43,494 bases of DNA, taken from assembly GCA_002733355.1 (NCBI GenBank), contig NVVN01000005.1, positions 66,104-109,597 on the forward strand, given 5' to 3'. Positions 7,572 through 22,015 of this stretch are shown here, one piece after another. Each line of letters opens with the position of its first letter. Position 1 is the stretch's first letter. The notes below the pieces were generated by a model that did no database searches, was not told where the DNA came from, and worked only from the letters and a program-made list of their open reading frames with translations. The position numbers were made by a program, and so were the translations under genes. Source of the DNA: Sulfurovum sp. (lineage in GTDB: Bacteria > Campylobacterota > Campylobacteria > Campylobacterales > Sulfurovaceae).

Positions 7572-10500
7572 TTACTCTATTTCTTCTTCTTCAAAATCAC
7601 TCTTTTTTGAGAACTTTAGATAGAGTATAGGAAGAATGATAAGTGTGAGTAGTGTTGAACTTACAAGACCATTTATTACCACAATAGCCAGTGGCCGTTG
7701 TATCTCGGAACCGGGTCCTGTGGCAAAAAGAAGAGGCAAGAGTCCAAAAGCTGCGATACTAGCTGTCATAAGTACGGGTCTTAGTCTTTTAATTGCTCCC
7801 TCCATTACAGCCTCTTTAATGGAAATACCATTTTTTACAAGATAGTTGAAGTAGTTGACCAACACCACCCCATTAAGCACAGCTATACCAAGCAATGCGA
7901 TGAAGCCTACGGAAGCGGGAACTGACATATATTCACCACTAACATATAATCCTATAAACCCACCAATGAGAGCCAAGGGCACGTTAATAAGCACAATAAT
8001 AGCTTGTTTAAGTGAACCAAACGAAACAAATAATAAGATAAAGACCAACAAAAGTGCTAAAGGTACAATGATAGCAAGTCTATCTGCAGCACGTTGCTGA
8101 TTTTCAAATTCTCCACCAAATGTGAGGTAGTAACCTGCGGGAAGTTTTACCTCTTTTTCTATTTTGGCTTTAGCTTCTTCAACAAAACTAACAAGATCAC
8201 GTCCTTCTACATTGGTTTGTACAATAGTTTTTCTATATCCATGTTCATGTACTATCTGCACTGGTCCTGCACTGGATACAAATTTTACAAGCGTGCTTAA
8301 AGGGACAAATTTCCCATTTTTCAGAGGATAATAAAGTTTTTTTAACTTACTTATAGAGTTTTGTAGACTTGCATCTCCTTTGACCATAAGATTGATCCGT
8401 CTCATACCTTCTTGTATAATCCCAACCTGTACACCTGTAACCATGACTTTTAAAAAGTCATTTATTTCTTGTTGATCTATGTCATGGTATGCCATAGCTT
8501 TTTTATCAAAGCTCAGTTCTAAATACTCTACACCTTCGTTGGCTTTTTTATAGACATCTGAACTACCTGGTATAATTTCTAATATATCTTTGATTGTAAC
8601 GGCTATTTTTTCAAGTTCATCATTGTCACTACCAAAAATATCTATAGCCAAGTCACCCCGTACACCTGTGAGCATCTCAGACACTCTCATCTCTATAGGT
8701 TGAGTAAACCCATACTCTATTCCTACAAACTCATCAAATACTTTACGTATTTCATTAATCACAAACTCTTTCGAAGGCTCTCTCCACTGACTTTTATCTT
8801 TGAGTACCAAGAAAGTATCTGTGTCATTAAGTCCCATTGGGTCAAGTCCTAGTTCATCACTTCCTGTCCTGGCTATAATATCTTTAATTTCAGGTACAGA
8901 TGCTATGAGTTTTTGTTGTACTTTGAGGTTAAGTGCCAAACTTTCTTTAAGTGAAATAGATGGCAACATCTCTACTCCTATAATAATACTTCCCTCATCC
9001 ATAGTTGGCATAAATGACTTTCCTGTTTTAGATGCCATAAAGAGTGAAGCAGCAAAAAGTATGAGAACAACAGTAATAGTGGTTTTCCAGTGTTTTATAC
9101 AGGTAACTAAGATAGGTCTATACCTTTTAGTAAGTACCCTGATGAGCCATGACTCTTTGTCTGGTCTTTTACTCAGGATAAATGAACTAAGCACTGGTAT
9201 CAGTGTCAGTGCTAGTACTAACGATGAAAAAAGTGCAAAAATAATACTTAGTGCCACAGGTCTAAAAAGTTTTCCTTCAAGTCCTTCAAGTGTAAGTAAT
9301 GGCATAAAAACAATGATAATAATAAGAACACCCGTGATGATAGACGGTGCCATCTCAACTGTTGCCTCATATATGATGTGCAGTTTATTTACATTTTTGT
9401 GTTTTTCATTTCCCAATTCTGCTGTAATATGTTCCACTACCACTACAGCAGAATCGACAAGTATACCTATGGCAATAGCAAGTCCACCTAAGCTCATTAG
9501 GTTAGCTGTGAGTCCGAAATATTGCATAGCTATAAAACTCATTAGAAGTGCAAAAGGCAAGATAAGTGCTACTGAAAGTGCAGAAGCTAAATTGCCAAGC
9601 ATCACAAGTAATATTATCATGATGAGAACTATGGCTTCATAAAGTGCATTTTTAACAGTACTTGTAGCAAGGTTTACGAGGTCTGAACGATCATAAAATA
9701 TATCTATTTTAGTGCCTTCTGGGAGCATAGGCTCTAGTTTAGCTAGCTCTACTTTAACCTGTGCTAGTACTTTTTCAGTATTACTCCCTTTAAGTCCAAG
9801 AACCAATCCTTGCACAGCTTCACCTTTACCATTTTTACTTACAAAGCCTGCACGTGTCAAATACCCAAATTTAACAGTAGCTATGTCTCTAATAGTGATG
9901 ATTTTATCACCACGTTTTGTTACTGGAAGCGCTTTTATTTCATCTAATGAATTGAGTTTACCCACTGACCGTACTAAGATGCTTTCTACACCTTGAGAGA
10001 CACGTCCTGCACCATCATTTTGATTGTTGTTTTCTAAACTAGTAAAGATATCCTCTAAGCTGACACCCATCGCACGCATCTTATTAAGATCAGGCATTAC
10101 TTCATAGGTTTTGACTTTCCCCCCAAGTGCATTCACTTCTGCAACACCGGATACAGAACGAATTTTAGGTGAAATGATCCAATCAAGCAATGAACGTTTC
10201 TCTTCCAAAGAAAGAGTATCTGATTCTATAGTAAACATCAAAATATCACTAAGCGGTGTAGAAATAGGGGCAAGTCCACCCTCCATATTTTTTGGAAGTT
10301 CTCCTCTAATATCAGTAAGACGTTCAGTGACTTGCTGTCTTGCCCAGTAAATATCCGTACCATCTTCAAAGTCAATGGTAATATCACAAAGCCCATACTT
10401 CGCTATACTCCGCATCATTTTTTCATGAGGGATACCTAACATTTTCATCTCTATAGGTGTAACAATACGAGATTCTATCTCCGCAGGTGTCATTCCACTT

Positions 10501-10655
10501 GACTTGATGATTATCTTAACTTGAGTAGGTGAGATATCTGGAAAAGCATCCACAGGTAATTCTTGATAGGCTTTTATACCAAACCCAAGTATAACCAAAG
10601 CAAGTAATGATAGAAATAACCTTTGTGCAAGGGCAAATCCTATAATTTTATTCAT
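7572..10655 (-). CDS. CusA/CzcA family heavy-metal efflux RND permease (system 1)
   Basis: PVDAFPDI, AIAIGILVDSAVVVVE, VLNGVVL and RLRPVLMTA motifs; ~1027 aa; ATG 10655 with SD AGGTG overlaps the adaptor stop. Confidence 0.95.
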   Translation of the reverse strand: MNKIIGFALAQRLFLSLLALVILGFGIKAYQELPVDAFPDISPTQVKIIIKSSGMTPAEIESRIVTPIEMKMLGIPHEKMMRSIAKYGLCDITIDFEDGTDIYWARQQVTERLTDIRGELPKNMEGGLAPISTPLSDILMFTIESDTLSLEEKRSLLDWIISPKIRSVSGVAEVNALGGKVKTYEVMPDLNKMRAMGVSLEDIFTSLENNNQNDGAGRVSQGVESILVRSVGKLNSLDEIKALPVTKRGDKIITIRDIATVKFGYLTRAGFVSKNGKGEAVQGLVLGLKGSNTEKVLAQVKVELAKLEPMLPEGTKIDIFYDRSDLVNLATSTVKNALYEAIVLIMIILLVMLGNLASALSVALILPFALLMSFIAMQYFGLTANLMSLGGLAIAIGILVDSAVVVVEHITAELGNEKHKNVNKLHIIYEATVEMAPSIITGVLIIIIVFMPLLTLEGLEGKLFRPVALSIIFALFSSLVLALTLIPVLSSFILSKRPDKESWLIRVLTKRYRPILVTCIKHWKTTITVVLILFAASLFMASKTGKSFMPTMDEGSIIIGVEMLPSISLKESLALNLKVQQKLIASVPEIKDIIARTGSDELGLDPMGLNDTDTFLVLKDKSQWREPSKEFVINEIRKVFDEFVGIEYGFTQPIEMRVSEMLTGVRGDLAIDIFGSDNDELEKIAVTIKDILEIIPGSSDVYKKANEGVEYLELSFDKKAMAYHDIDQQEINDFLKVMVTGVQVGIIQEGMRRINLMVKGDASLQNSISKLKKLYYPLKNGKFVPLSTLVKFVSSAGPVQIVHEHGYRKTIVQTNVEGRDLVSFVEEAKAKIEKEVKLPAGYYLTFGGEFENQQRAADRLAIIVPLALLLVFILLFVSFGSLKQAIIVLINVPLALIGGFIGLYVSGEYMSVPASVGFIALLGIAVLNGVVLVNYFNYLVKNGISIKEAVMEGAIKRLRPVLMTASIAAFGLLPLLFATGPGSEIQRPLAIVVINGLVSSTLLTLIILPILYLKFSKKSDFEEEEIE

Positions 10656-11721
10656 TACTTTCACCTAATATATTTTTTAAAATAGCCACAGAGGAACTTG
10701 CAATAGTCCCACTTATATGAGGGTTTATTTTGATGTAATAGGCTTCATTATCTTCTGCAAGAATTTCTATGGGAACATCAAGATAGCCTTTGCTATTTTT
10801 AACAAAAATAATTTGTCGCTCCCCGTCTTTTATAACAGAATTTTTACTCACTTTCATACTCTTTGAAGTTATAGAAATGTGTGCATTCTCCCGTAATCCT
10901 GCAACGATATTTACTTCTTTTGGTATAATGAATCGGACTTGTCTGGTTTGGTTTTCTCGGTTAATTACTGGAGAAATTTGTAAGATATTACTCTCAAAAG
11001 TTTTGCCATACATTTTGATGGTTACAGCTTGCCCCTCTTTAAGATTTTTTGTACGCTTAGCTTCTATGTTAGTTTCCAGCCAGAGCTTACCTTTTTTTTG
11101 TATGACAAAGAGTGCACCACCTACAGTTGTACTTTTCCCTGGTGATGCATGAAGAATAATAATTCTGCCTTCTACATCACTTTTTACATCAAGAGTAGGG
11201 CTAAGTATAAGTTGATTAAAAAGTGTATCTATCATGGTATCACTTGCTCCATAACTCTTAAGTAGTGCCTTCGAGGCGACTACTCTTATCTTGTCTGTTC
11301 TAAGTTCTGCATTGGCAGCAATACACTCCTTTTTAGGAATAATTTCTTCTTTACAAAGTATGTTTTTACGTTCAGTAAGATGAGAATGATGTTTAAACTC
11401 TATCGCTTCTGAAATGGCTTTTTGCTGTATAGCTATCCACTCTGTTCCTGTAACGTTTGCAAGTATATCACCCTTGTGTACCATTTGATACTGGGCAACA
11501 TTAAGGGTTTTTACATTGGCTTCAAAAGGAAGTGAAATAGTATGAAGTAGTGTAGGTGGGGTCACTACTTCTGCTACAAAATCACCCAAAGGAAGTTGCT
11601 CAAAGAGCTTAGGCTTTTCTAATGTAATTTGCCAATTTTTTTCTTGTTCTTCACTCAATATAATCTCTCCAGAATGAGAAAAGGTTAAGAGTATACTGAG
11701 CATCATAATATGTTTTTTCAT
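10648..11721 (-). CDS. RND periplasmic adaptor (CzcB/CusB-like), system 1
   Basis: Signal peptide, barrel-sandwich hybrid motifs (V.KGD.LA; VKSDVEGRI), located between TolC and RND pump; start ATG 11721 with SD AGGA. Confidence 0.9.
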   Translation of the reverse strand: MKKHIMMLSILLTFSHSGEIILSEEQEKNWQITLEKPKLFEQLPLGDFVAEVVTPPTLLHTISLPFEANVKTLNVAQYQMVHKGDILANVTGTEWIAIQQKAISEAIEFKHHSHLTERKNILCKEEIIPKKECIAANAELRTDKIRVVASKALLKSYGASDTMIDTLFNQLILSPTLDVKSDVEGRIIILHASPGKSTTVGGALFVIQKKGKLWLETNIEAKRTKNLKEGQAVTIKMYGKTFESNILQISPVINRENQTRQVRFIIPKEVNIVAGLRENAHISITSKSMKVSKNSVIKDGERQIIFVKNSKGYLDVPIEILAEDNEAYYIKINPHISGTIASSSVAILKNILGESNE

Positions 11722-11725
11722 TGTT

Positions 11726-12919
11726 TTAGTCCTTTTTTTCACTCAAACTGTAGAGTCTAAAGAGTGTATTGTAATATGCTTTTTTATGTGTATGAAGTTC
11801 TTGGCTTAGTGTATAAAGTTGTTGACGGTTCAGTAAGTACTCAATAACAGAGGTTTCACCTAAACTATAGCTTTTTTTGATAAGTGGTAATAACTTTTTT
11901 TTGTAATTCCTGTAGTTTTTTGAAAGACTTTGTATTATCAAGGCTTGACTGTAAAGTTGCGCTTTAAATTCTTTCAGTAAAGATGTTTTTTCTAGCATTG
12001 CTTGTTCAAATCCATATTCAATAGCAGATGCCTTATGCATAGCTGCAGCACGTGCATGTTCATTACGTTCAGAGGTGAAATTAAGTGGTAAAGATATACC
12101 TATAGTGTATCTGTCTACATCCAACTCTTTTCCGTACTGACCATTAATAGTAACCGACTCTAATGCATTGTCGTAACGTATTAAGCTCTTTTTAGCACTC
12201 TGAAGACGCTTTTCTTTGGCTTCTTTTGAAAGTGAAAAAGAATGATCAAGTTTTATTTTACTACGGATAGGATAGACATCTTTACAAGAAAGATTTGTAT
12301 TATTTCCGTATCCTATACGGCTAAGCATCAAAATCTTCTGTTTAGAAATGTCTTGCATCATTTTCATCTTTTTTACTTGAGCAAGAAGTCTGTTTTTTTC
12401 ATTTTCAAGTTGCATAAGTTCTACTTTTGAAACCTCTTGGTATTTATAAGCTTTTTCTTTCTTTTTGTAGAGTATAAGCAAGTCATTGTAGCTTTGTTTT
12501 ATATTTCTATAGTTTTGTACATCCAGACAGTGTGTATGATAGAGATTTTTTAATCCATTTCTAAAATCAATTAAAACTTTTTCACTCTCTATACGTGAAG
12601 CTTCTGTTTGAAGATTGGCTATAGTACGTTCTTGGCTTTGAATATTTCCAAGTTTTATATTCTTTGAAATGCCTATGGCATATTCATATCCATCTGTTCC
12701 AAATTTTGGTCTGGCTCTGCTACCTTCAAGATAAAGTCCAAATGGGTTATCGGATGTATCAGATAGGCTTTGAGCTCTCATCGCTAAAGCTTGTTGATCA
12801 AATGATTTTGACATTACATTATGCTCGTCAGCAGAAAGCAGTAGTTTATGAAGCGTAAGTGTTGAAGCATAGGTAAAATTAAGACTTAAACCTATTAGTA
12901 TCCAAAATAGGATTTTCAT
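11726..12919 (-). CDS. TolC/CzcC family outer-membrane efflux protein, system 1
   Basis: Signal peptide, coiled-coil repeats, IGISLPL and SYSLGETSVIEYL OMF motifs. Confidence 0.9.
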   Translation of the reverse strand: MKILFWILIGLSLNFTYASTLTLHKLLLSADEHNVMSKSFDQQALAMRAQSLSDTSDNPFGLYLEGSRARPKFGTDGYEYAIGISKNIKLGNIQSQERTIANLQTEASRIESEKVLIDFRNGLKNLYHTHCLDVQNYRNIKQSYNDLLILYKKKEKAYKYQEVSKVELMQLENEKNRLLAQVKKMKMMQDISKQKILMLSRIGYGNNTNLSCKDVYPIRSKIKLDHSFSLSKEAKEKRLQSAKKSLIRYDNALESVTINGQYGKELDVDRYTIGISLPLNFTSERNEHARAAAMHKASAIEYGFEQAMLEKTSLLKEFKAQLYSQALIIQSLSKNYRNYKKKLLPLIKKSYSLGETSVIEYLLNRQQLYTLSQELHTHKKAYYNTLFRLYSLSEKKD

Positions 12920-12922
12920 ATG

Positions 12923-12973
12923 TAACCTTTATTATAAAATTTTAAGTGTATTAGGGTGTAAAAATAAAGGTTA
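12923..12973 (-). promoter_or_regulatory. 11-bp RNA stem pairing the leader-ORF stop region with the tolC SD
   Basis: mRNA UAACCUUUAUU (12973-12963) is the exact reverse complement of AAUAAAGGUUA (12933-12923), which contains the tolC SD AAAGG. Confidence 0.75.
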
Positions 12974-13273
12974 AGCTATAGGGGGTTTGATACTTGTTTT
13001 TTGAAAAGGAGGGGTATAAAAAGTCTTTTGATGAAGTACTTTACTTTTGAGAGTAGGAGTTGAGAGAGATAAATAAGTCTTTTCTATAATTGCCATAAAA
13101 TGAAATATGTGGTGATAGTCACAAATATCGCTAGATTGTGAAAATGAAATTTGTTCTTGTACATAAGTATGTATGGAGGTACTAGTATCCATTTCTTCTG
13201 CAAGTACAGTATCATGTACTATATGAAAAAAGAGTGTAAACAATAGTAAAAACTGTAAGAGTTTCTTTTTCAA
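12971..13273 (-). CDS. CzcI/DUF2946-like small leader protein, copy 1 (100 aa)
   Basis: TTG start with SD AAAGG; hydrophobic N-terminus, DICDYHHIFHFMAI, C-terminal YTPPFQKTSIKPPIA; clear paralog of 20749-21054. Confidence 0.8.
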   Translation of the reverse strand: MKKKLLQFLLLFTLFFHIVHDTVLAEEMDTSTSIHTYVQEQISFSQSSDICDYHHIFHFMAIIEKTYLSLSTPTLKSKVLHQKTFYTPPFQKTSIKPPIA

Positions 13274-13508
13274 CACCGTACCTTTATACATTTTGTGTAG
13301 TGTATCTAAAAATAGTTAACAACTAAAAGAAATCTTTTATCTAGTAGAGTTAAATATTTATTTCTTCTTCTACTCACATATACCAACAAAATAGAATCAT
13401 TTTGGAGTTATGCTAAAATAGGATTAGTTTAGTTTTATAGTACGTGTAAAAATTTTTAACCAATATCTACAATCCAATGCTAAACATCATAGATAAGGTT
13501 TTAATAAA

Positions 13509-14405
13509 ATGGAAAATTATATAGAGTTAATTCAAAATCTCGTAAATAAAATTGAGGAAGATGTAGCATTTGACGTGAGTATAGCTTTGCTTGCAAAAGA
13601 GTTCCATCTTTCTCCTTGGCATTTTCAGCGTATGTTTAAAAGTATTGTGGGTGATTCTTTAGGTGCTTATATACGAGGTCGTAGGCTTACAAAGGCATCC
13701 AAGTTATTGCTAAATAGCCAAGATACAATTATCCAAATTGCTTTTGATGTAGGGTTTAGTTCACATGAAGCATTTACCCGATCATTTAAAGCCTATTTCT
13801 CATTTTCACCAAAAGAATTTCGGAAAGTAAAACCTAAAGTTATTTTGAATGAAAAGCCTTTATTAACACAAGATTTATTAGAGCATATTAGCCATGGCAT
13901 GAACCAAGAACCTACTATTATTACACTACCAGAACGTATACTAGTTGGGGTAAAAACACATATACCTTCGCCATTTGTTACAACGCAACATACTTGTGAT
14001 TTTGTATATAAGTCGTGGATGACATTATTTGAAAAACAAGTACATTTAAAACATAAAGTTGAGAAAAATTATTTTGGATTAACCATAAGCCCTTCAGGTA
14101 ATTTTACTGAAGAAAAATTAGACTATATCGCAGGTATACAGGTGGTCAATAAAAGTGAAATTCCTGAAGATATGGTACAGTATATTTTACCAAAAACGCA
14201 AGTAGCTATCTTTAGTATCAAAAGTGATTTAGATAGTGACTTGGTTAAGAAAACAATAGACTATATTTATGGGTATTGGTTACTAAATAGTGAATATACT
14301 CGAGGTATTGGTGATGACTACGAGTACTTTGAAGATGTAGTTAGTTTTATGGAACCCACCTTCAAATCATTTTATGTGTTACCTGTAGTAAAAAAAACTA
14401 GTTAG
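13509..14405 (+). CDS. AraC family (Rob-like) transcriptional regulator with C-terminal GyrI-like effector domain
   Basis: SPWHFQRMFK...GAYIRGRRLTKA...IAFDVGFSSHEAFTRSFK dual HTH; GyrI-like domain ending YIYGYWL...RG.GDDYEYF. Confidence 0.9.
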   Translation: MENYIELIQNLVNKIEEDVAFDVSIALLAKEFHLSPWHFQRMFKSIVGDSLGAYIRGRRLTKASKLLLNSQDTIIQIAFDVGFSSHEAFTRSFKAYFSFSPKEFRKVKPKVILNEKPLLTQDLLEHISHGMNQEPTIITLPERILVGVKTHIPSPFVTTQHTCDFVYKSWMTLFEKQVHLKHKVEKNYFGLTISPSGNFTEEKLDYIAGIQVVNKSEIPEDMVQYILPKTQVAIFSIKSDLDSDLVKKTIDYIYGYWLLNSEYTRGIGDDYEYFEDVVSFMEPTFKSFYVLPVVKKTS

Positions 14406-15102
14406 CATTTACCTTTTCCCATGCATCTTGATTAATACCTTTAAATAAAAACCAAAATACTAATGATAGTTCAGCCGGAATGGTTAGTAAAACAATAGTA
14501 TTTAATATATCTGCATAGTGTGGTAGCAAGAATAATCCCATACTATTTATAAAATATCCTGCACTTGCAAAGAAAAAAAGTGCAGCAAATATTTTTGGTA
14601 CAAAGTTTGAAGTACAGATGAGTCGTGACATAATGAATAGATGCAATGCGAAGAATAGTCCCCAAATGAGTGATCCATACCCATAGGCTTGTAGAAATAT
14701 ATAAGCTAAGGCTTCTTGTTGCTGGAGTGTGAAGTGAGTTAAGTAACTAGCTCCACTTAGTAATTCAAGTACTATAAGTTTGTTTAAAATATTTATACCG
14801 ATAAGTGCCGTCATCGCAAAACGTGCGGCAGCTGCTATTTGAGCCTGTGTTTTGTTTACAGGTTTAAATAGTTTATATAAAAGTACAGTAACGATAATCT
14901 CACTTAACAAGAGCAAGCCATCAGCTACTATCCCTAACCTAAAGGTAAAGATATCGCTTAGAATGTTGGTTGTTGTTGCATGTATATCATTTGAAACGAC
15001 TAAAGCTTCAAAGCCCACAAAAAATGCAAATCCTCCACATAATGCTATAAAAAGGTACAGTAGAGCAATGCTTTTGACAGTTGTTTGTATATTTGATTTC
15101 AT
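14398..15102 (-). CDS. DUF4386-like polytopic membrane protein
   Basis: About six TM helices; FRLGIVAD, LYKLFKPVNK, FFALHL, PAELSLVFWFLFKG pattern recalled for DUF4386. Confidence 0.7.
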   Translation of the reverse strand: MKSNIQTTVKSIALLYLFIALCGGFAFFVGFEALVVSNDIHATTTNILSDIFTFRLGIVADGLLLLSEIIVTVLLYKLFKPVNKTQAQIAAAARFAMTALIGINILNKLIVLELLSGASYLTHFTLQQQEALAYIFLQAYGYGSLIWGLFFALHLFIMSRLICTSNFVPKIFAALFFFASAGYFINSMGLFLLPHYADILNTIVLLTIPAELSLVFWFLFKGINQDAWEKVNAN

Positions 15103-18314: not shown

Positions 18315-19514
18315 CTAGTGACCATGCTCGCCAAGAGAAGACTTGAGCAGCATTGACTTCACAAAGTAAACTCCATCACTCACATACTCTTCATCTACTT
18401 TAAGACCTTTAATTGCTACATAGTCACCCACATAGGCAATAATTTCAATCACTTGTGCTTCGTAAGGTGCTTCCTCTTCTTCATGTTCATCGTGTTTACC
18501 TTCACCGTGAGTATCTTCATCTTTATCATTTCCTTTCTCGGCTTTGTGCGCATCATGGTCATGCTCATCATGTTCTGACTTTTCTTTTTCGTGATCATGA
18601 TCAGACTTTTCTTCATGGTGTCCAGCCTCTTCATGTTCTTTTTCTGTAAAAACAACCCATTCTCCCTTGTAAAGTGTGATGGCAGATTTTTTAACCATAA
18701 CCACATTTTTTGTAGGAGCAAGAGAAATATCTATCTCTGTAAATGCACCTAAAAGAAGATTTGATGGACTATTTTCTATTTGAAAAAGTACCTTAGCACG
18801 CTGTGTCTCAGGGTCAATGTTTGGTAAAAGTTGCATAAAAGAGGCATCATAACTTTTACCTAAAAGATTGATATAACCTTTTGTATCTTTAGATACATGC
18901 AATGCATGCTTGGTTGAGAGATACGCTGTAGCATAGTAAGTATTTTGATTTACCAATGTAACTAAAGGTGTCTGGGCACCTACATTTGTATGCAATGGTG
19001 CAAGGATGTTACCTACAGTTCCATCTGCATGAGCATAGAGTATAAATTGATCTGTTGCGGCTGTAAGTGATTTTGGCTTTAAGCCTAAAGAGTTCAACTG
19101 TGAAGCCAAAGTATTTAGTTGACTACGTATATTTTCTAAAGCAATAATGGCATTACTCACATCATTTTGTGAAGCTATACCTTTTTTATGTAAAGTCTTT
19201 GCTGTATTTTTCTGTGTTTTGGCAGCTTTTAGTTGTTTAACCAGTGCTAAATATTCTGCAGTCATTTTTGAAAGTTCTATGGACTCTATGAGTACAACTT
19301 TATCATCTTTAGAAACATGTTGTCCAGGTTTTACATAATAGGCTTCCAAATGTCCAGAGAGACGTGAAACAATGGTTTGTTTTTGGTCTGAGAGTTGTGT
19401 AATTTGAGCGTTTGTTTTGATAATCTTACCTAATGGTTTAAGTTCTGCATGTTCCATCTTTATAGCAGAAGAGAAGCCCAAAAGGGGTAAAAGTAAAAGT
19501 AAATATTTAGTCAT
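18315..19514 (-). CDS. RND periplasmic adaptor with a His/acid-rich insert, system 2
   Basis: Signal peptide, SRLSGHLEAYYVKPGQHV, IDPETQRAKV; ~60-aa His/Glu/Asp/Lys insert near the C-terminus; ends GEHGH. Confidence 0.92.
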   Translation of the reverse strand: MTKYLLLLLPLLGFSSAIKMEHAELKPLGKIIKTNAQITQLSDQKQTIVSRLSGHLEAYYVKPGQHVSKDDKVVLIESIELSKMTAEYLALVKQLKAAKTQKNTAKTLHKKGIASQNDVSNAIIALENIRSQLNTLASQLNSLGLKPKSLTAATDQFILYAHADGTVGNILAPLHTNVGAQTPLVTLVNQNTYYATAYLSTKHALHVSKDTKGYINLLGKSYDASFMQLLPNIDPETQRAKVLFQIENSPSNLLLGAFTEIDISLAPTKNVVMVKKSAITLYKGEWVVFTEKEHEEAGHHEEKSDHDHEKEKSEHDEHDHDAHKAEKGNDKDEDTHGEGKHDEHEEEEAPYEAQVIEIIAYVGDYVAIKGLKVDEEYVSDGVYFVKSMLLKSSLGEHGH

Positions 19515-20682: not shown

Positions 20683-20748
20683 ACGGATTCCTGTAATTTA
20701 ATATTGTAGATTTGTGCTCTATAGAGAGCTAGGGTGTGGTGACGCGTT

Positions 20749-21054
20749 TTAAGCTATAGGGGGTTTAATGTTTGTCTCTTGAAATGGAGGGGTATAACAT
20801 ACTACTTTATGTATAAGTTTTGTTTTACTCATTAATCTATCTGCGCTAAGTAAAGGTGTATCTAAGATTGCCATAAAATGGAAGAAATGATGTATATCAC
20901 ATAAATCACCACACTCAGCTGTATTACTTTGTTCTAATACATATTCATGTACAGATTCATGATGGCACTCATCTCCTACAGCGATGATAGAAGCATGAGC
21001 AATATTAAAAAAAAGTGCACATAACAATATAAAGTATATCAAACCTTTTTTCAA
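20749..21054 (-). CDS. CzcI/DUF2946-like small leader protein, copy 2 (101 aa)
   Basis: TTG start, SD AAAGG; hydrophobic N-terminus, CHHESVH, CGDLCDIHHFFHFMAI, C-terminal YTPPFQETNIKPPIA. Confidence 0.8.
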   Translation of the reverse strand: MKKGLIYFILLCALFFNIAHASIIAVGDECHHESVHEYVLEQSNTAECGDLCDIHHFFHFMAILDTPLLSADRLMSKTKLIHKVVCYTPPFQETNIKPPIA

Positions 21055-21109: not shown

Positions 21110-22015
21110 TTATCGTCTAAAAGTTACTTTATTCAAATCACATACATAACTATCTATAGCATGTTCCATCTGTATAGTAATATGCTCTATTTTGTAGTTA
21201 TCATGTAAAAAACCTTGAACTTCATCTAAAAATTCATTGTCTATCTTTTTATTGTTACTGACTAGATGGACACTAAAAGCAATTTCTGTAGTACTAAGTG
21301 CCCACACATGTAAAGCATGTATTTCTTTAATATTTGGAAGATTTAAAAGATACTCTTTAATTTCTTCCATATCTATATCCTTAGGTACTGCATCCATTGC
21401 TAAATTCACAGAATCACGGAAAAGTCCCCAAGTACCTAGAAGAATGACTAAGACAATAAGTAAACTAAGTACAGGATCTAACCAAAGCCAACCTGTATAC
21501 ATAATGACGATACCCGCAATAACAACACCCAATGATACACCGGCATCTGCTGCCATATGTAAGTATGCTCCTCTAATATTCAAGTCATCTTTTTGACCAT
21601 CCATAAATAGCAAGGCTGTAATAGTGTTAATAACTACTCCTATACCTGCCACAATGATGACAATTAATCCATCAACAGGTTGTGGGTCTGCAAAACGTCC
21701 TATTGCCTCCCAAGCTATAGCACCAAGTGCAATAAGAAGTAAGATAGAAGAGGTTAGTGAGGCTAAAATAGTTACTTTTTTAAGCCCATAAGTGCGTTTT
21801 AATGATGGATCCTTCTTTGCTAAGTAAAAAGCACCCCAAGCCAAGATAAGACTTACTACATCACTTAGATTATGCCCAGCATCTGCAATAAGTGCCAACG
21901 AATCAGCCATTACCCCATAAGCAGCCTCTATAATGACGAAGATAATATTAAGTGTTATTCCTATTGAGAAAGCTTTATTATAATTTTTTACTTCATGACT
22001 ATGGTCGTGTCCCAT
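21110..22015 (-). CDS. czcD: Cation diffusion facilitator (CzcD/ZitB-like Zn/Co/Cd exporter)
   Basis: N-terminal MGHDHSH, SLALIADAGHNLSD (HxxxD), NIRGAYLHMAAD, LHVWALS, HITIQME. Confidence 0.92.
   Translation of the reverse strand: MGHDHSHEVKNYNKAFSIGITLNIIFVIIEAAYGVMADSLALIADAGHNLSDVVSLILAWGAFYLAKKDPSLKRTYGLKKVTILASLTSSILLLIALGAIAWEAIGRFADPQPVDGLIVIIVAGIGVVINTITALLFMDGQKDDLNIRGAYLHMAADAGVSLGVVIAGIVIMYTGWLWLDPVLSLLIVLVILLGTWGLFRDSVNLAMDAVPKDIDMEEIKEYLLNLPNIKEIHALHVWALSTTEIAFSVHLVSNNKKIDNEFLDEVQGFLHDNYKIEHITIQMEHAIDSYVCDLNKVTFRR

Follow-up and report, generated by a model that had tools for sequence, protein, structure and literature searches.

In Rhodobacter capsulatus a small exported protein of the DUF2946 family, CutF, is encoded immediately upstream of the metal-detoxification gene cutO, and a stem-loop in the short intergenic region shields the cutO Shine-Dalgarno (SD) sequence. 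The signal peptide of CutF, its CxxxC motif and its proline motif are all required (PMC9973294; bioRxiv 10.1101/2025.02.05.636593), and the proposed model is that a ribosome held at the proline motif melts the stem. We have analysed a hairpin of similar placement in a 43,494-nucleotide stretch of a Sulfurovum sp. genome (contig NVVN01000005.1; 'the window' below means this whole stretch). It lies between a small leader gene (leader 1) and OMP1, the outer-membrane protein (OMP) gene of a heavy-metal resistance-nodulation-division (RND) efflux operon; together these form system 1. The original prediction had named CutF-cutO as a precedent, in agreement with the published work. We put at roughly 55% the probability that selection maintains the hairpin as a translational lock where a regulatory leader gene meets the operon's first structural gene. 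[quoted passage not shown]

The locus differs from CutF-cutO in several respects. The Sulfurovum leader, known here from sequence alone, does not match the DUF2946 hidden Markov model; its terminal motif is [KR]PPIx-stop, not of the PPP or RAPP type; and its sensor motif is CDxHHxFH, with CxxxC in about a quarter of family members. The target is an OMP-adaptor-RND efflux operon instead of a multicopper oxidase, the host belongs to the Campylobacterota, and the 5' arm of the stem includes the stop codon itself. The second DUF2946 system, CruR-bfrG of Bordetella pertussis, has its metal motif at a fixed distance from a C-terminal Pro-Pro: the CXXC-RAPP spacing is 45 residues, conserved to within 1-2 (PMC9426467), and the corresponding distance in the Sulfurovum leader is 43 residues from H60. 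In RAPP arrest two proline codons occupy the ribosomal P and A sites (PMC12992588), as may, by analogy, those of the Sulfurovum leader. Both loci also carry an excess of C over G (a C>G bubble) over the leader 3' end and the intergenic region. The output of CruR, however, is Rho-dependent termination over a 162-nucleotide (nt) intergenic region without an SD hairpin, and metal relieves the arrest, switching an importer off.

Three further precedents share parts of the arrangement. In SecM-secA, as in VemP-secDF2 and MifM-yidC2, the C-terminal arrest peptide of an exported leader holds the ribosome beside an SD-occluding stem, and the duration of arrest sets downstream translation; these leaders monitor the secretion or insertion machinery, not metal, and their arrest motifs are unrelated in sequence. 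In TnaC-tnaA the ribosome stalls at or next to the leader stop and a C-rich tract directly follows it, but TnaC is a 24-residue cytoplasmic peptide that senses tryptophan in the tunnel, and it acts solely through Rho antitermination. In Cupriavidus metallidurans the czcCBA genes are preceded by czcI; its product is also a small signal-peptide protein encoded directly before the OMP gene of a heavy-metal RND operon, but has no C-terminal proline motif (PMC9973294) and is believed to work in its mature form as a regulator in the periplasm.

The features of the system 1 junction and of its operon are:

12971..13291, minus strand: leader open reading frame (ORF) 1, called mechanically from the ATG at 13291, 106 residues
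12980..12988, minus strand: putative arrest site, codons AAA CCC CCU (K102, P103, P104); as in RAPP peptides, P103 would occupy the P site and P104 the A site (PMC12992588)
12963..12973, minus strand: 5' arm of the hairpin, UAACCUUUAUU, containing the leader stop UAA (12973-12971) and the anti-SD ACCUUU
12934..12962, minus strand: G-free loop of 29 nt, containing the box ACACCCUA (12959-12952) and the conserved TACACT (12950-12945)
12923..12933, minus strand: 3' arm, AAUAAAGGUUA, containing the OMP1 SD AAAGG (12930-12926)
11726..12919, minus strand: OMP1, 397 residues, a TolC-like efflux protein of the outer membrane (OEP family; Pfam PF02321, 3.4e-12)
10648..11742, minus strand: CzcB-type periplasmic adaptor of operon 1 (TIGR00999)
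7572..10664, minus strand: CusA/CzcA heavy-metal RND pump of operon 1 (TIGR00914, 2.8e-300)

The gene order on the minus strand is leader-OMP1-adaptor-CzcA/CusA, the last two within 7572..11742, and a spacer of 51 nt separates leader 1 from OMP1. On the mRNA strand the junction reads UAACCUUUAUU-29 nt-AAUAAAGGUUA-CAU-AUG. A repeat search returned the two arms as 11-nt sequences that are 100% complementary and 29 nt apart, which is the 11-base-pair (bp) stem of the original prediction. Its other positional statements also agree with the coordinates: the 5' arm begins with the leader UAA, the 3' arm contains the OMP1 SD and stops 3 nt before the AUG (12919-12917), and TACACT lies at 12950-12945. 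The AAAGG core is 6 nt before the AUG, and the ribosome-binding site of OMP1 is the one paired in the hairpin. The stem thus pairs the downstream SD with sequence at or next to the putative leader arrest site, as in the CutF/SecM mechanism.

Folding, which had been proposed as a check, gave the stem as both the minimum free energy (MFE) and the centroid structure (RNAfold, -12.5 kcal/mol, z = -2.8), and 2 of 200 shuffled sequences folded equally well. The length of the stem proves nothing by itself, because the window (35% GC) contains four perfect 11-bp inverted repeats with a loop of at most 60 nt where first-order Markov simulations lead one to expect 1.66; it is placement and the comparative data that carry the case. 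The energy needed to open the 12 nt around the OMP1 SD, 9.4 kcal/mol, is the highest among the 33 gene starts of the window, for which the median is about 3.3 kcal/mol. As a pairing score we took the Boltzmann-expected count of base pairs that join a leader-end window (stop-8 to stop+13) to an SD window (AUG-17 to AUG-3). The leader 1-OMP1 junction scores 10.9, whereas 124 mock junctions set upstream of the other 31 genes in the window have a median of 0.05, a 95th percentile of 5.7 and a maximum of 6.67.

Other functions were sought in the same sequence. No Rfam family reaches its gathering score anywhere in the window, and the region itself gives just one chance LhrC hit (E = 7.2). No terminator was predicted in the leader-OMP1 spacer. 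Among public sequencing runs the sequence turned up in DNA runs, which yielded population variants only, and in no RNA run. Read-through of the spacer as coding sequence was rejected because the frame is not maintained among relatives.

For comparison we assembled 84 loci from GTDB genomes, JGI metagenomes and contig look-ups, which reduce to 48 distinct leader-to-next-gene spacers; all named loci are from Sulfurovum or other Epsilonproteobacteria. Seven distinct spacers are of the system 1 type (T1-like), namely that of the window itself (W1) and those of loci L001, L018, L020, L031, L075 and L077, and their leaders range from 90% down to about 45% identity. A stem anchored on the leader stop and occluding the SD, as originally predicted, is maintained in all seven, with 8.6-11.0 expected pairs against the control maximum of 6.67, and RNAalifold recovers the helix from the seven sequences. 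Their SD opening energies are 5.3-10.8 kcal/mol in the free RNA and 1.5-4.2 kcal/mol with a modelled stalled ribosome. In the W1 register 85.7% of cells pair, compared with 39-49% when the partner is slid by one to three columns; the only changes seen there are C-to-U substitutions that give G-U pairs.

Some members retain the lock in other registers. L075 and L077 each carry three substitutions in the 5' arm, and L077 one more in the 3' arm; both refold so that UAGCCU (from the Ile and Ala codons and the stop-codon U) pairs with AGGUUA or AGGCUA, with a second helix UUAUUUUAA::UUAAAAUAA. Their z scores are -2.66 (L075) and -4.43 (L077), and none of 200 shuffles matches L077. In four T1-like loci (L020, L031, L075 and L077) the gene that follows is not an OMP gene but encodes a signal-bearing protein of 107-109 residues, and the lock is maintained.

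In many relatives, though not in system 1 of the window, a protein of this kind, about 102-109 residues long and signal-like at its N-terminus, is encoded between the leader and OMP genes. The insert of about 108 residues has no Pfam match, and L074 retains a 22-codon remnant of it. Its positions are:

L020:592-918; L031/L072:790-1119; L070:869-1195; L075:331-654; L082:2871-3179: inserted protein of about 102-109 residues

Similar geometry is found outside the T1-like group. In three spacers otherwise of the system 2 type (L058, L048 and L063) a sequence overlapping the stop, CCUAAUA(AU) or UCCUA..UUGUUU, pairs with (AU)UAUUAGG and encloses the entire box-plus-hairpin element described below; the lock of L058 is CCUAAUAAU::AUUAUUAGG, and those of L048 and L063 are related to it. 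In the distant L079, where the leader ends ...KPPILL and the gene order is ArsP-leader-OEP-adaptor-RND, UAUCCU..UAUAAU pairs with AUUAUA..AGGAUA. Altogether 11 of the 48 distinct spacers have at least 6.8 expected leader-end::SD pairs, compared with 0 of the 124 controls, and most of the remaining spacers score below 3. This recurrence of the lock through different nucleotides is the strongest argument that the architecture is selected, to which no formal probability is attached because the sequences are related.

What the lock would respond to is suggested by the leader protein. The ATG of leader 1 at 13291 has no SD, while a TTG at 13273-13271 is preceded by the SD AAAGGU and gives a protein of 100 residues; from this sequence context the TTG is likely to be the true start. 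The 100-residue form is database entry P0001, and a TTG start is also used by the paralogue, leader 2. Leader 1 has a signal-like N-terminus (a KKK n-region and a hydrophobic stretch modelled as a helix, residues 6-34), the motif DICDYHHIFHFMA (C57, H60, H61, H64), a YTPPF sequence and the tail IKPPIA-UAA; its C-terminus reads ...YTPPFQKTSIKPPIA-UAA. Leader 2, 47% identical to leader 1, precedes the second OMP-adaptor-RND operon of the window (system 2):

20749..21054, minus strand: leader ORF 2, a paralogue of 101 residues with a TTG start, carrying ECGDLCDIHHFFHFMA and the tail IKPPIA-UAA

An exhaustive profile search yielded a family of 130 clusters at 50% identity, nearly all of about 100 residues and all either annotated as 'hypothetical' or without a name. 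Leaders 1 and 2 give no DUF2946 match in Pfam at E <= 1 and nothing in NCBIfam. Three parts recur in the members: the basic-hydrophobic N-terminus contains an invariant His, (C)xDxCDxHHxFH(F) lies in the centre, and the C-terminus reads [KR]PP[I/K/R]x-stop. CDxHHxFH is present in nearly all of them, with H60 and H64 each in at least 90%; CxxxC occurs just upstream of the His motif in 28 of 120, including leader 2 but not leader 1. Many have an AHA-type site, at the position of which leader 1 has VHD. In 102 of 120 members the first Pro (P103) lies exactly 43 residues from the first motif His (H60), and in 116 the distance is 42-44, within the 1-2 residues to which DUF2946 proteins conserve their metal-to-proline spacing, while the sequence between the His motif and PP is essentially unconserved. 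[KR]PP is near-invariant (K in 93 and R in 23, the basic residue being followed directly by the prolines without an intervening A or G), and exactly two residues follow PP in 104 of 120. AlphaFold2, run on the family alignment, predicts helices at 6-34, 40-48 and 57-64 and no secondary structure at 65-106.

Since DUF2946 proteins are marked by a ruler of fixed length from the metal motif to a C-terminal Pro-Pro, the leader resembles, on paper, a sensor of the CutF/CruR type. In size, motif position and gene context it fits the rule-based definition of CutF-like proteins (PMC9973294), with 100-106 residues, PP 3-4 residues from the end and a 51-nt spacer to a metal-efflux OMP gene, and it agrees with the RAPP-like arrest peptides in being a small protein of exported type with the motif near its C-terminus. 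Two long profile matches, P0010 and P0073, were discarded as spurious low-complexity proteins in which the His motif is absent. Another entry, P0104 (198 residues), combines the whole leader N-terminus and the His motif with a C-terminal half of permease-like sequence that replaces the ruler and the KPP tail; this is either a gene-call or frameshift artefact, or a fusion.

We propose the following mechanism for system 1. In free mRNA the OMP1 SD would be buried in a stem whose opposite strand starts with the leader stop codon. A ribosome on the last leader codons would force the base of the stem open, the leftover A-U pairs, closed by a long loop, would fall apart, and the freed SD would become available to a second ribosome or to the terminating one. 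Translation of OMP1 would be conditional on that of the leader, because it is the leader ribosome that opens the stem, and its yield would scale with the time spent at the leader end. The leader appears to be built to modulate this dwell time, with its signal-like N-terminus, CDxHHxFH, unstructured 43-residue ruler and [KR]PP two codons before the stop. By analogy with the DUF2946 proteins CutF and CruR, metal binding by the exported nascent chain may change arrest at the C-terminal Pro-Pro. We infer co-transcription, arrest at KPP, leader export, the kind of metal and the sign of the response from family architecture and the DUF2946 precedents, and likewise the coupling to the lock of the efflux genes downstream of OMP1.

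In the model of the opening step the two Pro codons occupy the P and A sites, and the leading edge of the ribosome stands at about +16 from the first P-site nucleotide. With the covered positions constrained to be unpaired, the opening energy of the W1 SD falls from 9.4 to 2.8 kcal/mol; in system 2 and in most T2 (system-2-type) and T3 spacers the same constraint leaves it unchanged. The ribosome stalled at KP-P reaches only to about stop+4 and forces open just the first 4-5 pairs. The original prediction, that a paused ribosome covers the 5' arm and frees the SD, therefore stands as to the SD but not as to full coverage: the ribosome abuts and destabilises the stem. From the geometry, full coverage of the 5' arm would be reached by a ribosome on the Ala or stop codons.

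Every terminating ribosome must briefly melt the arm, and simple translational coupling is therefore a sufficient minimal function, to which regulated arrest would add gain. One could go further and suppose that coupling is all there is. The stem would then tie OMP1 to leader translation for fixed stoichiometry or ribosome hand-off, with neither regulated arrest nor metal sensing, and the leader would be a periplasmic metal-binding protein of the CzcI/CusF type whose KPPI(A/V) tail has its use in the mature protein, perhaps as a C-terminal recognition tag. The position of the stop codon inside the stem suits this explanation, as any ribosome that reaches the UAA must melt the 5' arm, and the base of the stem brings the UAA within a few nt of the SD and AUG. 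Hydrophobic C-termini such as I-A and I-V are typical recognition tags, which also counts for it, and CzcI-like proteins without the proline motif are located upstream of czcCBA (PMC9973294). We nevertheless consider it unlikely. An invariant [KR]PP that is a fixed 43 residues from the His motif, across otherwise unconserved sequence, and a fixed two residues before the stop would be hard to explain if the mature protein were folded, structure prediction leaves residues 65-106 unstructured, and the same type of leader works without a lock in most relatives.

A number of observations weigh against a selected lock operated by an arrest peptide. The proposed check on conservation and covariation had a divided outcome: the lock is present in 7 of 7 T1-like spacers, including the shifted registers of L075, L077 and L018, but none of the 11 pairs of the W1 register shows a compensatory double change among the seven spacers. 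The shuffle control for this register is uninformative because the alignment columns hardly vary. Conservation of the 5' arm does not exceed that of the loop's first half, and the 3' arm is the SD itself, which is conserved anyway. The identical stem of L001 carries little weight as its leader is 90% identical. L018 pairs UAGUUUAA with UUAAACUA, plus CC with GG, and its MFE structure is in another register than W1; L031 is no better folded than its own shuffles (z = -0.79); and one X5 metagenome variant, seen as a loose-end consensus of 30 nt, appears to retain just ACCUU::AAGGU. In most family members, including the paralogous system 2 of the same genome, the SD is open, so that the lock is not required for leader function. 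Opening by a KP-P-stalled ribosome must rely on destabilisation instead of full coverage, for the reason of reach given above. As to the leader, none of 97 family members scanned matched DUF2946 or any other Pfam model, and the family [KR]PP does not match the R-[A/G]-P-P, RAPG or RAGP core of the RAPP-like peptides (PMC12992588).

Some of these points bear on the possibility that the hairpin is neutral, an A-U-rich palindrome of a 35% GC genome that happens to link stop and SD and is found in close relatives through shared ancestry. The four observed inverted repeats against 1.66 expected, the lack of in-register covariation and the close identity of the L001 leader are all compatible with this. 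It would leave to coincidence, however, the exact placement, with the most occluded SD of 33 genes, the 11 family spacers whose values no control junction reaches (0 of 124), and the rebuilding of the lock with different nucleotides in L075, L077, L058, L048, L063 and L079. We judge it very unlikely.

The repeat might also act in DNA. It could be the operator of a regulator of the AraC/GyrI type, the gene of which (13509-14405, plus strand) is divergent from leader 1, or its loop could hold an internal promoter, with TACACT as -10, that drives OMP1 without the leader. TAC(A/T)(C/T)T is conserved in 7 of 7 T1-like loops (alignment columns 36-41), where it could belong to the conserved box or serve an internal start as a weak -10 element, and a TATAAT lies at 12936-12931. 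The latter, however, is TACAAT in L001 and absent in L018, and a sigma-70 scan found no promoter-like site on the mRNA strand of the spacer. The operator version was rejected, because the arm spacing varies and the registers shift among relatives, unlike an operator with fixed spacing; in addition, neighbouring regulators differ from locus to locus (a HisKA kinase in L070, an ArsR-type protein in L079). An element of this kind seems to us very unlikely.

The composition of the junction raises another type of output. The leader 3' third and the spacer form a C>G bubble that lies above the 99.5th percentile of the 80-nt windows of the stretch, and a similar bubble occurs in system 2 at 20700-20800 on the minus strand:

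12920..13080, minus strand: C>G bubble resembling a Rho utilization (rut) site in composition, for example 23 C against 2 G in 12936-13015
20716..20738, minus strand: spacer element of system 2, consisting of the box CACACCCUA (20738-20730) and the hairpin GCUCU-CUAU-AGAGC (20729-20716), clear of the SD AGGAA (20692-20688)

System 2 had been described as lacking an equally strong SD-occluding stem and as having only this small hairpin plus a self-complementary CUAUAG shared with the stop region, and for the stem the calculations bear this out: its SD opens at 1.6-1.7 kcal/mol and the junction has 2.0 expected pairs. An anti-SD was looked for and rejected, as CCCU::AGGA/AGGG and GUUCU::AGGAA yield just 3-4 weak pairs. 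The accompanying guess that the output of system 2 may differ is supported too; in place of a lock there is a conserved CACCCU box followed by the small hairpin. Among the loci L002-L074, 28 distinct T2 spacers share (U)ACC(A/C)CACCCU(A/C)GUUCUCU, that is (U)ACCACACCCU(A/C)GUUCUCU, and the SD (CAGGAA) is open. The small hairpin begins at a constant +21/+22 from the leader stop, with a loop of a few nt to well over 10. RNAalifold returns no consensus structure for the 28 spacers because the loop lengths differ; the system 2 spacer of the window (W2) carries a compensatory U-A to C-G substitution, for which L033 and L058 show the G-U intermediates, and pairing comes to 91% with one double change.

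The loop of the W1 hairpin also contains the core of the box, ACACCCUA, and C-rich versions of it follow the stop in the T3 spacers and in L069. A C-rich box stands 4-20 nt past the stop in all spacer types. No conserved complement of the box (AGGGU or GGGUG) was found within -450 to +900 nt at any locus, and the box is therefore probably single-stranded. It may be a rut site, a pause site or a protein site.

Because the C>G stretch resembles the bubble of cruR with its rut site (PMC9426467), attenuation by Rho must be taken seriously as a complementary output of both systems. Whether it is the main one is a separate matter. As in CruR and TnaC, the C-rich, G-poor tract with its CACCCU box would then be the rut site, ribosome occupancy at the leader end would decide on Rho loading, and the SD hairpin would be an accessory of some lineages. 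The strength of the bubble in both systems speaks for this, as do the presence of the box in lockless spacers also, the missing complement and the use that CruR makes of its bubble (PMC9426467). The skew, however, is partly forced by Pro and Thr codons; the box is downstream of a ribosome stalled at KPP and would not be masked by it; and the box is conserved far beyond usual rut sites, which, with the T2 hairpin fixed at +21/+22, suggests a more specific partner. Rho as the main output is a doubtful alternative to the stop-to-SD lock as the best-supported reading of system 1.

Other genes around the two systems complete the picture of the region. A DUF4386 membrane protein gene (14398-15102, minus strand) sits between them. 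Directly upstream of leader 2, with a gap of 55 nt, is a cation diffusion facilitator (CDF, CzcD-type) cation efflux gene (21110-22015, minus strand). The periplasmic adaptor of system 2 (18315-19514, minus strand) has a His/Asp/Glu-rich insert of about 70 residues (EKEHEEAGHHEEKSDHDHEKEKSEHDEHDHDAH...), probably a metal-binding loop, which is not present in the adaptor of system 1.

Taken over both systems, the data allow a wider, tentative reading to which we give somewhat less than even odds. The window would contain two paralogous copies of an undescribed family of nascent-chain metal sensors of the Campylobacterota (CDxHHxFH, a 43-residue ruler, [KR]PPIx-stop and no Pfam match) that gate heavy-metal RND efflux operons after transcription. 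The sensor would be wired to interchangeable outputs: a stop-to-SD lock invented several times with different sequences, or a CACCCU box with a hairpin at +22, perhaps involving Rho or pausing. What is new here is the different, unannotated leader family, the phylum and the target, together with two alternative output modules behind one leader ending in one genome.

That metal homeostasis can be controlled by arrest peptides with trans-membrane metal sensing is a recent idea, and the two studied DUF2946 proteins are both from Pseudomonadota. If our reading is true, the locus extends such sensing to a different unannotated family, to vent-dwelling Campylobacterota and to efflux pumps of the CzcCBA/Cus-type RND class. 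The apparent re-invention of the stop-to-SD lock in several registers across the family argues for selection on the architecture itself. In this genome two paralogous sensor-pump systems share the ending IKPPIA-UAA but have different spacers, one with a locked and one with an unlocked SD; this natural experiment makes the relation between arrest and output testable. The family definition, [KR]PPIx-stop with the 43-residue ruler, also provides an annotation handle for about 130 clusters of 'hypothetical proteins' upstream of metal pumps.

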